Shown: positions 4,212 through 17,219 of the stretch, piece by piece
Position numbering within the stretch: position 1 is the first letter of the stretch
Layout of the letters: each line of letters begins with the position of its first letter
Assembly: GCA_964426185.1 (NCBI GenBank)
Contig: CAYRPF010000015.1
Coordinates: 1 to 17,219 of the forward strand
Direction of reading: 5' to 3'
From: an uncultured archaeon
GTDB taxonomy: Archaea > Asgardarchaeota > Lokiarchaeia > Sigyniarchaeales > Promethearchaeaceae
DNA length: 17,219 nt
Made by a program: the position numbers and the translations under genes
Notes under the pieces: generated by a model
What the model saw: the letters and a program-made list of their open reading frames with translations, nothing else
Told to the model about the DNA's origin: nothing
Database searches by the model: none

Positions 4212-6239
4212 ATGTCTTCATCATCATCACCCAATAAATTGAAAATGGAATGTGCATTTTGCCATTTGCCCATAAACTTCCTTGATTTATCCACTAAGGG
4301 GCCAGTATCAAAGCAAAAAATCTTAAAATGTAGTAACGGGCATTTGATTCATCGAAAATGCTTGGAAAAGCGAATTATTATTGACCCTAGTTGTCCAATT
4401 TGTGGAGCTGCTTATTCATCAGAAATTCTTCAAACTTTTTCTCAAATTTTTAAAAATTTTAATCCAACCAAAAGCACAAATAACCAAGACAATATAGATA
4501 GTATATCAAAGAAACAATATGAAAATTTACAGCAAGAAATATTAGAATTGGAAAATAAATTAATAAGCGTAAAGAAAAAAGAGAAAAAAGTCAAACAAGA
4601 ATTGCAAAATACCATTTCCCGTCGTAGAAAACTGGAACAAGAATTACAAACAGTACAAGGCAAACAAGTCACTTTGGAATCTCAAATGGACCAAATTCAA
4701 CATGAAATCAACGCGTTCCACCGCCAAATCGAAGTTTTTGAAAATTCTATTCCAGAAGGTAAAAGATTAACAGATATTACTGCCATTTCAGCGGAAGTAG
4801 AAGAAGATGTTGTGCAATCTCAAAAAAATCGAAAGGACAATGAAAACAAGATCACGAAATCTACACAACGAGCGGGGACTAAAACTATAGCGAATTTCTC
4901 AAATTCAAAAGACTCATTTAATTTCCTTTCGGCTATTTCGGAAAAGGTATCGCAGAATTCCAACATAATAGATCAATCTCAAGATAATTCATTTGATCCA
5001 GGTCTAGAAGATGACTTCGATTCATTAAACTTCACGGAATTAGTAACCCGAAGGGCAAAACGGCAACATCATGAAGAAAAAAAAGGTTCATACCTTGCTT
5101 TTCAGGAATTAACAGAAAAACGACTGAAAAATAGACCTGGAAAGATTAAACATCCTTCGTTCATCGATACCACTGATGCTGCAGCAGTGCTTCAAGATTC
5201 AACATCTCGAAAAACAGGAACTAATGGAAAAAAATCATCATCATCTTTCAATTTTCCCCAAACAAGCATTAAACAGACCCCCAAACCTAAAACCAATCCC
5301 GTTCCCAAACCAATTAACTCAGTCTCTAAAACAATAACTGCTTCTAATGCTGATATTGCTAGTTCATCTAAACATACCATACCAAGCGTAAAACCATCAT
5401 TCAGACAAATATCAGTATCAACTAAAAAAAATACTCCAATATCAATATCAAAAACGATTCCATCATCAAATTCAGCCGTTATTGATGAAGCAGCAGCTTC
5501 AAAAAAAGAAGGCCCTTTATGTGTGATCTGTCATGCTCCGATTAATCCAAAAATTCATGCTTCTCATGAAGTGGCCAACAATGTGAATTCCAACTCATCA
5601 AACGAGGGTGATTTAGTTCAATGTCCTAATGCACATCCGGTTCATCGGGGATGTTTGAAATTGTGGATAGTTCACAGCGATTTATGTCCGGTTTGTCATG
5701 AAAAATACGATCCAAGTGTAATTGCTAGTTTTAATGAATTTAAACAAGTATATGCCGATCAAAAACAAGCACTAAAAGAGCGAGAAGAAATGGAACAGGC
5801 TCAACGGGAACGGGAAGAGTTATTGAAAAAAATTGATCCTGAATTCACCAAAAAGTATAATGAAGCAGATAAATTAATGAAATCGGGTCAATACAATGAA
5901 GCGTTAAATGCCTTTTGGGATATTTTAGACAAAAAATATTTTCCAATAAAAGATCAACGGATGCTACGAACTATCTTAAACATTGGATTAATATATTATA
6001 AATTGGGAAAACAAGCTCATGCAATTAAACAGTTTATGAAAATCGTTAAAATTGATTATAATTACCCTCTTGCTTTTTACTTTTTGGGATTGTGTTATGA
6101 TCAATTGGGGGCCGCGGATAAAACCAAATGGGCTTTAGAACGTGCCTTAAGAAATACGCAACTTTTAGCTCAAGAAAATCCAAGATATGCAAAATTTATT
6201 GAAGATATCGAACAACGTCTGCAGAAACTTCCAATTTAA
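4212..6239 (+). CDS. Double RING-H2, coiled-coil and TPR protein; putative ubiquitin E3 ligase
   Basis: Two C3H2C3 fingers (aa 14-64 and 437-495), a heptad coiled coil at about aa 95-178, an S/T/K/P-rich linker, a charged helix, and C-terminal TPR-like repeats (NIGLIYYKLGKQAHAIKQFMKIVKIDYNYPLAFYFLGLCYDQLG). Confidence 0.85.
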   Translation: MSSSSSPNKLKMECAFCHLPINFLDLSTKGPVSKQKILKCSNGHLIHRKCLEKRIIIDPSCPICGAAYSSEILQTFSQIFKNFNPTKSTNNQDNIDSISKKQYENLQQEILELENKLISVKKKEKKVKQELQNTISRRRKLEQELQTVQGKQVTLESQMDQIQHEINAFHRQIEVFENSIPEGKRLTDITAISAEVEEDVVQSQKNRKDNENKITKSTQRAGTKTIANFSNSKDSFNFLSAISEKVSQNSNIIDQSQDNSFDPGLEDDFDSLNFTELVTRRAKRQHHEEKKGSYLAFQELTEKRLKNRPGKIKHPSFIDTTDAAAVLQDSTSRKTGTNGKKSSSSFNFPQTSIKQTPKPKTNPVPKPINSVSKTITASNADIASSSKHTIPSVKPSFRQISVSTKKNTPISISKTIPSSNSAVIDEAAASKKEGPLCVICHAPINPKIHASHEVANNVNSNSSNEGDLVQCPNAHPVHRGCLKLWIVHSDLCPVCHEKYDPSVIASFNEFKQVYADQKQALKEREEMEQAQREREELLKKIDPEFTKKYNEADKLMKSGQYNEALNAFWDILDKKYFPIKDQRMLRTILNIGLIYYKLGKQAHAIKQFMKIVKIDYNYPLAFYFLGLCYDQLGAADKTKWALERALRNTQLLAQENPRYAKFIEDIEQRLQKLPI

Positions 6240-12853: not shown

Positions 12854-13846
12854 TTAATCTACAAAAAAAAGCTGTAAAAAGAGCTTGTTGAGTTCCAAAT
12901 TTTTTAGAATATCCCATTTTCGCAATAAATATGGCATGATTTCTTTTTTAATGATAGAAAGATAAACACGTTCACCCAATTCGCGTTGAAGAACATTTTG
13001 AAAATGTCGTAAAACTAAATAAAAGAGTGGAATAAGAACGTCTTGATCCAGTCCGACGGGATTAAGCCCAAAGATATTCGTAGCCGGAGCTTCATTAAAA
13101 ATTATTTCGTCAGTAACTAAATCGATAAAGGGAATAAAAATTTCAATTACGCGATAAGTATCATCCAGATTTTGCCTTTGATACCATAAATTCAACTTAT
13201 CCTTATACCGGTTCAGTCTTTCCAACACAATGTGTCGTTTCAATCCAGAAAAATTTCCATTTATAATATTAATGAAAATGCAAAAGATTTGTTGAAATAT
13301 TCCCATTAAATCAAAAAGCATGCCAACATTCATGATTTGGTCTGCTTCTGTCCATTGACGGTAAAGTGTCTCCAAAATCTCGGAAAATTGGCGAAATTTA
13401 CTAATATCATAATCCCAATTTCTCCAGAACTCATTATTAATTTGAAATTTTTGCATAAACATATCATGGATGACTTTCAATCGCGCTTTAATCAAAGAAG
13501 CCCTGGTTAATTTTTCAGCAACCGCAACTAGCATCAAATTAGAGGATTTATTACTTAAATAAACCCATCGTAACCCACCCATTTCAATGGATTCAATCCC
13601 AGTATCCCCCAGTTCAGCTTCTGAAAAGCTGTTTAAAGCTGAAAGTAAACCTGATAAAAGCATTCCATCTAGCACTTGTTCATCAGCTCTCGCATGGAAG
13701 AAGAGAGATTTTGAGGATTCTTTCTCAATCACCCAAAGATATTTAATTTCATTCGAGATGAAATTTGGTATATGTGATGATTGTGAGGTGGAATTATGAG
13801 AATTTCTATAAATTTTGGAGGAATTCTCTGATTTACTATGGAACAT
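12854..13846 (-). CDS. Longin-like domain protein (Asgard type) with helical C-terminal region
   Basis: N-terminal beta-beta-alpha-beta-beta-beta-alpha pattern: IKYLWVIEK-SSKSLFFH...LLSGLLSALNSFS...IESIEMGGLRWVYL...LMLVAVAE...LKVIHDMFMQKF. Confidence 0.65.
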   Translation of the reverse strand: MFHSKSENSSKIYRNSHNSTSQSSHIPNFISNEIKYLWVIEKESSKSLFFHARADEQVLDGMLLSGLLSALNSFSEAELGDTGIESIEMGGLRWVYLSNKSSNLMLVAVAEKLTRASLIKARLKVIHDMFMQKFQINNEFWRNWDYDISKFRQFSEILETLYRQWTEADQIMNVGMLFDLMGIFQQIFCIFINIINGNFSGLKRHIVLERLNRYKDKLNLWYQRQNLDDTYRVIEIFIPFIDLVTDEIIFNEAPATNIFGLNPVGLDQDVLIPLFYLVLRHFQNVLQRELGERVYLSIIKKEIMPYLLRKWDILKNLELNKLFLQLFFVD

Positions 13847-13944: not shown

Positions 13945-13965
13945 AATATTCGATATTCGAATATT
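13945..13965. promoter_or_regulatory. Palindromic operator 1 (probable PadR-family site)
   Basis: Perfect 9-3-9 inverted repeat AATATTCGA-TAT-TCGAATATT. Confidence 0.7.
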
Positions 13966-13984
13966 ATTAATCGATTACAAAACA

Positions 13985-13992
13985 TTTATATA
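13985..13992 (+). promoter_or_regulatory. Archaeal TATA box for the padR-hsp20 operon
   Basis: TTTATATA preceded by an A-rich BRE-like CAAAACA; lies between the two operators. Confidence 0.6.
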
Positions 13993-14014: not shown

Positions 14015-14041
14015 ATGATTATTCGAAATTCGAGTAATCAT
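14015..14041. promoter_or_regulatory. Palindromic operator 2 (probable PadR-family site)
   Basis: 12-3-12 inverted repeat with one mismatch, ATGATTATTCGA-AAT-TCGAGTAATCAT. Same core as operator 1, located at the expected transcription start. Confidence 0.72.
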
Positions 14042-14054
14042 CTCTCTTCATGCT

Positions 14055-14642
14055 GTGAAAACTATGATATCCCAACCAGAAAACCACCATTTGATCATCT
14101 TGGCCTTAATCAACAACCATCCGGAAGGAATGACTGGATATTCTATCGTAAAAGAAATTAACGCAAAATTTGCTCCCGTTTGGACCCCTGGACCTGGAAC
14201 CATATATCCGAAGCTGAAACAATTACTCGACCAAGGCGCACTCGCTAAAGAAGGTTCTAAATATCGTATAACTCAAACAGGAAGAGAATTCATCGCCCAA
14301 CACATCCCAGAAGCACTCAATCTCAGCATGAATTTTTTACCAGCGTTTTTTAAGGTTCTAATACACCCAATTAATCAACAGATACCATTCGACATCCATA
14401 TTTTTAAGAACCCATGCTTTTTTGGAGTATCTCAATTCAAGCAGCTTCCTACACAATGGAACGTCGAAGAATTAGAACGCCTGCAACAAATGTTGAAACG
14501 TGAAAAACAACGAGCCACCCAATGGGTGCAAGAATATGTCAAACAAATCGATGAAGACATCCAAGTGATTGAAGAAAAAGTAAATGAAATGAAAGAAAAA
14601 GCAAAAATCATTCCAGTTAAAGTAGTATGGGAGCAAGAATAA
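14055..14642 (+). CDS. PadR-family winged-helix regulator with C-terminal coiled coil
   Basis: IILALI...MTGYSIVKEI...WTPGPGTIYPKLKQLLDQG...YRITQTGRE. The start may be ATG at 14064. Confidence 0.9.
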   Translation: MKTMISQPENHHLIILALINNHPEGMTGYSIVKEINAKFAPVWTPGPGTIYPKLKQLLDQGALAKEGSKYRITQTGREFIAQHIPEALNLSMNFLPAFFKVLIHPINQQIPFDIHIFKNPCFFGVSQFKQLPTQWNVEELERLQQMLKREKQRATQWVQEYVKQIDEDIQVIEEKVNEMKEKAKIIPVKVVWEQE

Positions 14643-14665: not shown

Positions 14666-15115
14666 ATGAAGCCACATGACCCCAAATTTATAGAATTTTT
14701 TAATCTGCCCCCATTTAATAACTATTTCTCACCGAAAGATAAAGATTTGCTTTTACAGAACTTTCGTGTCCTAATGAATTTCATTCCTTTAAATAAATTG
14801 GAAAATTTCATGCCATATGATCTCACGGAAACTCCGACAAAGTACATAGTGGATATTCCCCTTCCAGGATTGGCTCCAGAAGATATTAACATCGCGCTTT
14901 CTGCAGACAATCGAATACACATTGAAGCAGATCTTAGGAAAACACCAATAAGTTCCAAGAATCATAAGCAGCATTGTCAAGTAGAATGGAGTAAATTATT
15001 CTGGCAACGACCAATTCATGTGGAGATTCCCATTGAAAATCCGGTCGATCCGAATTTAGTGAAAGCTAAATTAGAGCGAGGGATTTTGCACGTAGAATTT
15101 TCCAAAATCAAATAA
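14666..15115 (+). CDS. Small heat-shock protein (Hsp20/alpha-crystallin), paralogue 1
   Basis: PYDLTETPTKYIVDIPLPGLAPEDINI...VDPNLVKAKLERGILHVEFSK. A GAGG SD favours ATG at 14666 over the track start at 14627. Confidence 0.88.
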   Translation: MKPHDPKFIEFFNLPPFNNYFSPKDKDLLLQNFRVLMNFIPLNKLENFMPYDLTETPTKYIVDIPLPGLAPEDINIALSADNRIHIEADLRKTPISSKNHKQHCQVEWSKLFWQRPIHVEIPIENPVDPNLVKAKLERGILHVEFSKIK

Positions 15116-15142: not shown

Positions 15143-15385
15143 GTGTTGAATATGAGCCAATCTACCAGTGAACTTCAAAATTCCTTTTGGAAGCCAATAT
15201 TTTCACAAGAAATCATCCTTCCAGAGGATCAGTTAAAGACATACATTGTACATCCCAAACAATCGAATCCCATGAAGCAACAGATAGCTAGAACTGGAAA
15301 GGTAGATTCAGTTGATCTCAATTACTTCGATCCCGAACAAACAGTACTTGAATCAGTGAAAAAACGCTTTCCTTTTTTTTATTAA
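15143..15385 (+). CDS. Small hypothetical protein within the hsp20 operon
   Basis: 77-80 aa ORF that fills the gap between the two hsp20 genes on the same strand with short spacers; likely ATG at 15152. Confidence 0.65.
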   Translation: MLNMSQSTSELQNSFWKPIFSQEIILPEDQLKTYIVHPKQSNPMKQQIARTGKVDSVDLNYFDPEQTVLESVKKRFPFFY

Positions 15386-15407: not shown

Positions 15408-15815
15408 ATGACACACGTACAAATGCACTGCGGCTACGGACATTCCGACTGGAACCATATATTCCAGCAATATGCCCAGCTTATGCCGTATGATTTAGAA
15501 GAAACTGCCGAAGAATATTTGATCACCATGCCTTTACCTGGCTTTCAAGCCGAAGCGGTACATATATCGCTCACCGCACACACCATATATATCGAAGCCA
15601 AACCTCCAGGGGTCGATGAAAAACCAGATGGAGAAGAAAAACCCAAAAAGATTGTATCTATGGGGAAAATGCTGTGGAATCGTCCAATCCGAGTCGAAAT
15701 TCCAGTCAGTGAAGAAATAGAAGAAGATAATGTAAAAGCAAAATTATCAAATGGGCTATTAATGGTTAAATTTAAGAAAAGACCGAAGAAAATTGTGAAA
15801 GTTGAAGAAGAGTAA
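15408..15815 (+). CDS. Small heat-shock protein (Hsp20/alpha-crystallin), paralogue 2
   Basis: PYDLEETAEEYLITMPLPGF...IEEDNVKAKLSNGLLMVKFKK, C-terminal IVKV (IxI/V-type) motif, GAGG SD. Confidence 0.9.
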   Translation: MTHVQMHCGYGHSDWNHIFQQYAQLMPYDLEETAEEYLITMPLPGFQAEAVHISLTAHTIYIEAKPPGVDEKPDGEEKPKKIVSMGKMLWNRPIRVEIPVSEEIEEDNVKAKLSNGLLMVKFKKRPKKIVKVEEE

Positions 15816-15842: not shown

Positions 15843-16648
15843 CAAATTGGTTTTTGAGCAGAGATTTGGATATGACCTGCTTGCCCAATGAAGGAATATT
15901 TTTGACCGTATTTTATCTCCAATTCGAAAAATTCTTGATAGTGGGTGGTTAATTTCTTTTCCCGCTGTTTTCTAGGTAATGCACCCATAAAAATACCCTT
16001 TCCGAAGAGTGAAATATTAGTAAAGCCACAAGATTGAAACAAAGCAGTCAATTGTTCTGGAGTATATGTTTTAAGGGAATGTTCTTTGAAAAATTTAGTG
16101 ATACTGCTTCTTTCCAATTCTTTCAATACTGAAAATTGATTATATTTGATATGATTGAGAATATAAACAAATTTACTGTCAACTGAAGCTACGCAGAATC
16201 CACCAGGTGCTGTAATTCGATTCATTTCTTGAACAGCTATCTGATCATCCAGCGCGTATGAAATAACATCACCCAAAGCCATCACTAAATCATAGGAATC
16301 AGTGCTCCATTGAGAAAGATCTCGGATATCACCCTGTTTAAATTCGATTTGATCCATAACTTCAGCCTTTGCGGCTTTTTCTTCTGCAATGTGTAGCATA
16401 TCAGGAGATATATCAATACAATCGATAAAATATCCCATTTTTGCGAGTTTTATTGTCCATTTTCCCGTTCCACACCCAATATCCATTATACGACTCTTTT
16501 TATTTTTAGGGAGAAAGGGTTTAAGAAAATGCCAAGTTAAATCGTTATAGAGTTCCCAATACTTGTCTTCATAGTCTTTGTCATATAGTGGGGCTTTTTT
16601 TCGATAGTAATTCACAAGATGAGTGAGATCACTTTTTTTTTCTTTCAT
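15842..16648 (-). CDS. Class I SAM-dependent methyltransferase
   Basis: Motif I IMDIGCGTG, plus IDISPDML, GDIRDL, SYDLV and RITAPGG. The start overlaps the upstream gene by 20 nt. Confidence 0.92.
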   Translation of the reverse strand: MKEKKSDLTHLVNYYRKKAPLYDKDYEDKYWELYNDLTWHFLKPFLPKNKKSRIMDIGCGTGKWTIKLAKMGYFIDCIDISPDMLHIAEEKAAKAEVMDQIEFKQGDIRDLSQWSTDSYDLVMALGDVISYALDDQIAVQEMNRITAPGGFCVASVDSKFVYILNHIKYNQFSVLKELERSSITKFFKEHSLKTYTPEQLTALFQSCGFTNISLFGKGIFMGALPRKQREKKLTTHYQEFFELEIKYGQKYSFIGQAGHIQISAQKPI

Positions 16649-17219
16649 TTTTTATTTTCAGAAGATTTTTTTTAATTTTCTTGATGTTTTTATTTAGATT
16701 TTTAATATTCTTTTTAGTTCCTTTAATTAACTGCCTTAATGATCGCTTTTCTTGTTTATTTTGGGGAACTGCAGATTTTAATGTTTGTAGTTTTTGAGTT
16801 GCTTTTTCTTTTTGAAGTTGCAATCCTTTGAATTCCCTTTCTAAGGAATTTCCTTCAAGATTATCTGTGCAAGTGGTATAGTTACTTGCTTCAAGATTGA
16901 AAGAATTTGTTATGCGGGATTTTGCCATCCATTTTTGCTGATAGTTTAAACTCGCTAACTGCTCTTTGTGAAGACGACTCATTTCTGAAGCAGATTCAAT
17001 TTGCTTTTGTTTTATTAACATTATTTTTTCTCGTTCTAACTGCTCCCTTTCTAATTGCTCGTTTTCTAATCGTTCCCTTGCCAATTTATCTTTTTCTTTT
17101 CTTTCTTTTTCTTTTCGTTCTTGCTCTAATCTTTCTTGTTCCAATTGTTCTCTTTCTAAACGCTCCCGTTCTAATCTTTCTCTTTCTAAACGTTCACGTT
17201 CTAATCTCTCTCTTTCTAA
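16629..17219 (-). CDS. C-terminal part of a charged, LERER-repeat helical protein (5' end outside the window)
   Basis: The frame stays open from 17144 to the window edge (LERER x4, LEREQ...), so the track's TTG start is internal. Lys-rich coiled-coil C-terminus. Confidence 0.8.
   Translation of the reverse strand, partial: LERERLERERLERERLERERLEREQLEQERLEQERKEKERKEKDKLARERLENEQLEREQLEREKIMLIKQKQIESASEMSRLHKEQLASLNYQQKWMAKSRITNSFNLEASNYTTCTDNLEGNSLEREFKGLQLQKEKATQKLQTLKSAVPQNKQEKRSLRQLIKGTKKNIKNLNKNIKKIKKNLLKIKNERKKK
17025..17219 (-). repeat. Coding 15-bp degenerate tandem repeat, 13 visible pentapeptide units
   Basis: LERER LERER LERER LERER LEREQ LEQER LEQER KEKER KEKDK LARER LENEQ LEREQ LEREK. 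Confidence 0.9.

Follow-up and report, generated by a model that had tools for sequence, protein, structure and literature searches.

The small heat-shock protein (sHSP) operon of Ca. Harpocratesius (Lokiarchaeia) within the window, i.e., the whole stretch of 17,219 nucleotides that was analysed, encodes a PadR-family regulator whose C-terminal I/V-x-I/V tail is conserved in the regulator family far above chance. On balance, the locus as a whole is best explained as an autoregulated stress operon in which the putative repressor mimics the C-terminal extension of an sHSP. The tail probably docks in the β4/β8 groove of the α-crystallin domain (ACD) encoded by the same operon, and this docking plausibly couples the transcriptional output of the autoregulated repressor to the state or occupancy of the sHSP. 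The evidence for docking between regulator and sHSP is wholly comparative.

The regulator (14064–14642, plus strand, 192 aa) starts at the ATG at 14064, with an in-frame GTG at 14055. It belongs to the PadR family by its match to PF03551 (E value 4e-10, 40 bits, Pfam cut-off 27), and its best PDB matches, both by sequence and by fold (Foldseek), are PadR proteins. In the AlphaFold model, a winged helix-turn-helix is followed by a long helix, a flexible and poorly ordered linker, a coiled-coil helix (residues 134–181), and an unstructured tail. The second long helix stops at residue 181, and residues 182–192 form a coil with pLDDT values down to about 51; the I/V-x-I/V motif is therefore exposed in the model. 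Positions 14601–14642 (plus strand) encode the last 13 residues, AKIIPVKVVWEQE, and the stop codon, and the putative ACD-docking tail, i.e., I/V-x-I/V followed by an acid, occupies 14601–14639. The open reading frame and the model thus agree with the initial annotation, which had described an IxI/V motif after the coiled coil. Its emphasis on an IPV motif of the BAG3 kind, on the other hand, was not borne out. I-P-V (14610–14618) overlaps V-K-V (14616–14624); the aligner places I-P-V in register, an ungapped comparison with family members selects V-K-V, and V-K-V is no worse a register than I-P-V in the Harpocratesius regulator. Among 90 hsp20-linked regulators, the middle residue of the motif is Pro in only 35, being otherwise mostly Glu, Lys or Asp.

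Downstream of the regulator, hspA (14666–15115, plus strand) and hspB (15408–15815, plus strand) both score above the PF00011 cut-off of Pfam. As noted initially, the two differ at their C-termini: hspB, which has sHSP matches in the PDB and aligns as the orthologue of the conserved partner gene, carries its own IxI extension and ends KKIVKVEEE, whereas hspA stops with FSKIK, where its last strand also ends, has no IxI extension, and retains an intact ACD sandwich fold. The tail-less hspA occurs in 2 of 14 genomes of the family, namely this one and Ca. Harpocratesius repetitus, both Harpocratesius, and is a recent duplicate. The regulator tail therefore predates hspA, and the partner it had ancestrally was a tailed Hsp20; indeed, the tail is kept in operons whose sole Hsp20 is tailed. 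The proposal that the tail-less paralogue is the preferred partner is accordingly not upheld, and we can only speculate that hspA may serve as a lineage-specific extra dock for the regulator tail. Between the two sHSP genes lies an ORF of 77 aa (15152–15385, plus strand), which is conserved, in a position between the regulator gene and hsp20, across three genera of the family. Its orthologues comprise 73–79 aa and share an invariant Trp, an R-x-G element, and a C-terminal aromatic R-[FY]-P-[FY]-[FL]-Y motif; neither a match in Pfam or to an sHSP profile nor a convincing Atlas cluster was found. Orthologous operons are present in Ca. Lokiarchaeum ossiferum and Ca. Harpocratesius repetitus, and a single-protein search of the genome contigs gave no match. 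A complex prediction combining two copies of hspB (residues 20–135) with regulator residues 158–192 gave a score of 0.30 (mark 0.32; controls not folded) and is given no weight in either direction. The linked Hsp20s, i.e., hspB (N-terminus at 15408–15455) and its orthologues, have N-terminal regions rich in Cys, His, Met and Phe, and the regulator linker often contains Cys, His and Phe-Pro, which together might reflect a metal or redox link.

Homologues were gathered from the family, the class and the phylum, and the gene neighbourhoods of each set were read. Tails were scored by a loose test, which required I/V-x-I/V and an acid within the last 22 residues, and by a strict test. In this genome, the loose test is passed by 270 of 2686 ORFs (10%) and the strict test by 2.3%; since one ORF in ten has such a tail, a single case proves little. 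Across the regulator family, chance does not account for the tail: the loose test is passed by 87 of 90 hsp20-linked homologues and the strict test by 82 of 90. Of the three failures, one gene is masked by Ns, another appears to be misassembled, and the third has a degenerate P-x-I-x-W form, a tail found in one subgroup (L106, P0034, P0036, P0038 and P0039). When all ACD-linked homologues are considered, with either hsp20 or an ArsA-ACD gene directly downstream, the tail is present in 90 of 94, in contrast to 3 of 58 unlinked PadRs, and the motif occurs in 28 of 330 internal windows taken as background. The comparison of linked with unlinked homologues that had been suggested as a check, with lack of conservation as a refuting outcome, therefore speaks for conservation of the motif. 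In unlinked PadR paralogues, the C-terminus is a zinc ribbon or a plain coil, and those that share the regulator's coil do without the tail. One of the three tail-bearing unlinked PadRs is a chance match, and the other two (L150 and L156, from one family) are real exceptions, tailed regulators around which no ACD gene is present for about 2 kb. L150 and L156, together with L160, L162, L163 and L165, are related PadRs without an hsp20 neighbour, in which the next gene downstream is an ORF of 63–86 aa resembling an sHSP-type N-terminal stretch followed by a coiled coil, i.e., a different small partner.

In an alignment of 92 rows with a median identity of about 27%, occupancy of the two I/V positions reaches 96% and 100%, a conservation on par with that of the DNA-binding residues of the recognition helix; aligners pull short motifs into register and thereby inflate such column scores, whereas the regular-expression counts given above are independent of the alignment. 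As would be expected of a short linear motif, both the spacer ahead of it and the residues behind it are free to vary, and the tail persists in some members that have Pro-rich or acidic sequence in place of the coil. The linked and tailed form is present in ten Asgard families, and the groups concerned include, under the names on record, Lokiarchaeia with Helarchaeales, Atabeyarchaeia, and Baldrarchaeia; no such form was found among the bacterial PadR matches examined. These homologues are related, more than half of them belonging to a single family, and the counts therefore do not represent independent events; the evidence is one of long-term selection and of a partner switch rather than of many separate origins. 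The linked and tailed regulators probably share one origin. Deep support in the regulator tree, which was built without the tails, is too weak for gains and losses of the tail to be counted.

The regulator tails and those of the partner sHSPs conform to one common profile. Lys is found at position −2 in 63% of both, Ile at position 0 in 86% of regulators and 81% of sHSPs, and Ile at +2 in 89% and 73%, respectively, followed by an acid. Four distant hits (about 20% identical) that were chosen by the tail alone all have hsp20 directly downstream (4/4), counting only contigs that reach far enough (those of L137 and L140 are too short). Moreover, for three tail-bearing regulators without a nearby hsp20, the next gene downstream, at a distance of about 110 bp, encodes an ArsA/Get3 ATPase fused to an ACD (PF02374 and PF17886, as in Get3d), an alternative ACD partner that was found in one Asgard family. 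There, the tail is kept in three of four regulators, and in the fourth (L157) a premature stop is followed by a decayed remnant. Since the tail is kept where the partner is a Get3/ArsA-ACD fusion, it tracks the ACD and stays with this domain when the partner gene changes. In one of the genomes (L360:3089–3337, G309:C282), an 82-aa ORF directly 3′ of an ArsA-ACD ATPase has a basic I-E-I-E end and is another probable ACD ligand.

Two palindromes with the common core TTCGA-N2–4-TCGAA flank the candidate TATA box. Palindrome 1 (13945–13965; TTCGA-N3-TCGAA) is a candidate operator upstream of a candidate BRE (13978–13984, plus strand) and TATA box (13985–13992, plus strand), which form a conserved upstream block and are assigned from the archaeal promoter consensus; it is also the top-scoring intergenic site in a genome scan. 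Palindrome 2 (14015–14041), with 13-nt arms that are 92% complementary and a core conserved in relatives, covers the expected transcription start as a second candidate operator. The twin-palindrome layout around the TATA box is conserved in relatives within the Lokiarchaeia, and the palindrome was not seen in the upstream regions compared outside this class. Scans of five genomes with the operator pattern revealed no shared target beyond the operon and hence no multi-gene regulon. The layout fits a local autorepressor, and the candidate operators are placed much as reported for Phr (PMC9133787). The centre-to-centre distance of the palindromes is 73, 73, 73, 63, 63, 73 and 52 bp in L001–L004, L006, L061 and L076, respectively, corresponding to whole helical turns, and 56, 77, 36 and 48 bp in L063, L010, L040 and L060; the spacing gives a weak hint of looping. 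A reading of the palindrome as a eukaryotic heat-shock element was dropped, as its spacing differs. An RNA run at the orthologous locus of a related genome (G012) yielded one 35-kb contig over everything, which is DNA-like and uninformative on transcription. Divergent from the regulator is an ORF of 330 aa (12854–13846, minus strand) with no Pfam match, and the intergenic region with the palindromes is common to both genes. This arrangement recurs in Ca. H. repetitus, and a paralogue of the ORF is located on another contig (C59). The genome contains further sHSP-like genes, namely three in tandem on C28 (L208), a tailed one of 247 aa on C23 (L205), and a tail-less one on C51 (L209), and the operator scan found no high-scoring operator at any of them.

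From these features, a mechanism may be proposed. A PadR dimer, judging from the position of the palindromes, would bind on both sides of the TATA box and block transcription of its own gene and of the hsp20 genes. The exposed tail at the end of the long helix would then dock in the β4/β8 groove of the operon's ACD. This groove is bound by IxI/V motifs of other proteins, such as BAG3 (PMC8047445), and clients compete for it (PMC6212398); as the sHSP's own tail and clients both occupy it, the regulator would sense sHSP occupancy. Unengaged sHSP would act as a co-repressor that stabilises or scaffolds the DNA-bound repressor, unfolded clients and co-aggregation would draw the sHSP off and cause derepression, and newly made sHSP would restore repression. 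This sign of the loop, i.e., co-repression relieved by clients, is put forward tentatively. Sequence cannot decide the direction; negative feedback appears likelier than sequestration by activated sHSP because of the analogy with IbpA, with Hsp17.4-CII/HsfA2, and with the other titration loops described below.

The same docking might also operate with the opposite sign. In that case, a heat-activated sHSP would be the sensor: its freed grooves would capture the tail and pull the regulator off DNA or into co-aggregates, and re-oligomerisation after stress would release the repressor. All the comparative data fit such an anti-repressor equally well. Moreover, resting sHSP oligomers are established to hold their grooves filled with their own tails (PMC8047445), as should also be the case for the tailed Hsp20 that is the usual partner, which makes this direction arguable, and tail-less ACDs such as hspA and the ArsA fusions would offer a free groove. 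Yet a co-transcribed anti-repressor would generate positive feedback, whereas the chaperone-titration circuits compared here are negative loops, and we regard this version as rather unlikely. A further alternative, which we consider improbable, is that binding between tail and ACD serves only stability or turnover, with the sHSP chaperoning an unstable regulator or passing it to proteolysis and exerting no direct effect on DNA binding. This would explain the coupling to ACD genes and agrees with the poorly ordered middle region of the AlphaFold model, but a dedicated motif across ten families exceeds the needs of ordinary client binding, and even such an arrangement would act as feedback in the cell.

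The tail could instead bind something other than an ACD, either as a β-strand in the regulator's own dimer or as a mimic of the DnaK C-terminus directed to the receptor of that motif, e.g., a J-protein. The DnaK of this genome indeed ends V-D-V-E-W plus acids, to be compared with V-K-V-V-W plus acids in the Harpocratesius regulator. The Trp form is limited to one subgroup, however, and the profile of most tails is that of the sHSPs; the tail goes with ACD genes and is missing from unlinked paralogues that have the same coil, so there is little to recommend this reading. Least credible is a neutral relic of the 3′ end of a duplicated hsp20, or chance. Motifs of this kind do occur at 10% of the C-termini of this genome, but two positions conserved to 96–100% at about 27% overall identity, between a variable spacer and variable flanks, largely refute it.

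HSF1/Hsp70, HspR/DnaK and HrcA/GroE are negative chaperone-titration loops, in which free chaperone keeps the system in its off state and unfolded proteins titrate the chaperone. The Asgard operon would work like these loops through an interface not found in the literature searched: they employ ATP-dependent foldases, whereas the proposed loop relies on an ATP-independent ACD and on a mimic of an oligomer tail. Among sHSPs, E. coli IbpA senses aggregation and, through titration by aggregates, controls its own synthesis by negative feedback (10.1101/2020.04.20.050740; PMC10410725), although IbpA acts on mRNA translation and, unlike the proposed loop, without a partner repressor. In tomato, the sHSP Hsp17.4-CII binds and controls the heat-stress transcription factor HsfA2 (Port et al. 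2004, via PMC2803211); HsfA2 is an activator unrelated to the Asgard regulator, and no IxI docking is described for this pair in the account consulted. BAG3, whose IPV motifs bind HSPB1 and HSPB8, is likewise a non-sHSP carrier of an exposed IxI/V groove ligand (PMC8047445). It is, however, a eukaryotic co-chaperone with internal motifs, while the Asgard carrier is an archaeal DNA-binding protein with a C-terminal motif in which Pro is optional.

To date, only two archaeal heat-shock transcription regulators have been described, Phr and HSR1, and how either senses stress is unclear (PMC9133787). Phr (Pyrococcus furiosus PF1790, PDB 2P4W) and HSR1 (Archaeoglobus fulgidus) are likewise winged-helix autoregulatory hsp20 repressors; HSR1 is co-operonic with hsp20, and the operators of both are near the start site, as here (PMC9133787). 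They are, however, of the ArsR type and have different operators, whereas the Asgard regulator is a PadR protein. Moreover, Phr has a wider regulon and usually does not adjoin hsp20, while the Asgard regulator is local. The tail was found in 0 of 22 Thermococcales Phr orthologues, which were collected with a search pattern verified against 2P4W (E value 5e-73), the extreme C-terminus (final eight residues) of P. furiosus Phr lying outside this count. As 2P4W is absent both from the 51 PDB matches of the family profile and from the best 50 fold matches, the Asgard regulator is not a member of the Phr/HSR1 family.

Within the partial coverage of a literature search, no published description of a regulator with an ACD-docking tail was found, nor one of a heat-shock transcription regulator for Asgard archaea. 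The operon offers a candidate regulator, a candidate operator, and a concrete sensing interface that could be tested with three small recombinant proteins. If the proposal is true, IxI mimicry by a non-sHSP protein exists in prokaryotic relatives of eukaryotes. For Get3d-like ATPases, in which the role of the ACD is stated to be unclear in an account that mentions no IxI ligand (PMC10248533), the tail also points to a candidate ligand. More broadly, there is perhaps an even chance that the regulator represents a portable and ancient Asgard proteostasis sensor built on a transcription factor whose IxI mimic inserts directly into the ACD oligomerisation groove, whether the ACD is that of an Hsp20 or of a Get3d-type ATPase; competition for the groove among clients, sHSP tails and the regulator would then set transcription, providing a prokaryotic precedent for BAG3-style docking.

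Several other features were observed. Lokiarchaeial DnaK (L262:4866–6836, dnaK on G000:C3; L263–L292) ends K-K-V-V-D-V-[ED]-W plus acids, i.e., the usual DnaK tail with a change of Ala to Val that gives an IxI-type V-D-V. This end could dock on sHSPs, and it also resembles the tail of the Harpocratesius regulator. One Asgard family has a tail-less hsp20 within a ribosomal protein operon, between the probable L30 and L15 genes (L312–L314); Hsp20 has reportedly been mentioned in Asgard ribosomal clusters. A further hsp20, present in many Asgard families, immediately follows a conserved gene of about 250 aa (L307–L311, L317–L323 and L326) whose sequence resembles that of a PAC2-type proteasome assembly chaperone. 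Within the window, positions 4212–6239 encode a protein of 675 aa that combines two RING-like zinc fingers with a coiled coil and TPR repeats, an E3-ligase-like architecture of the eukaryotic-signature kind, and an ORF at 16629–17219 (minus strand), which runs off the end of the window, contains a short repeat rich in Glu, Arg and Leu that is coiled-coil like.
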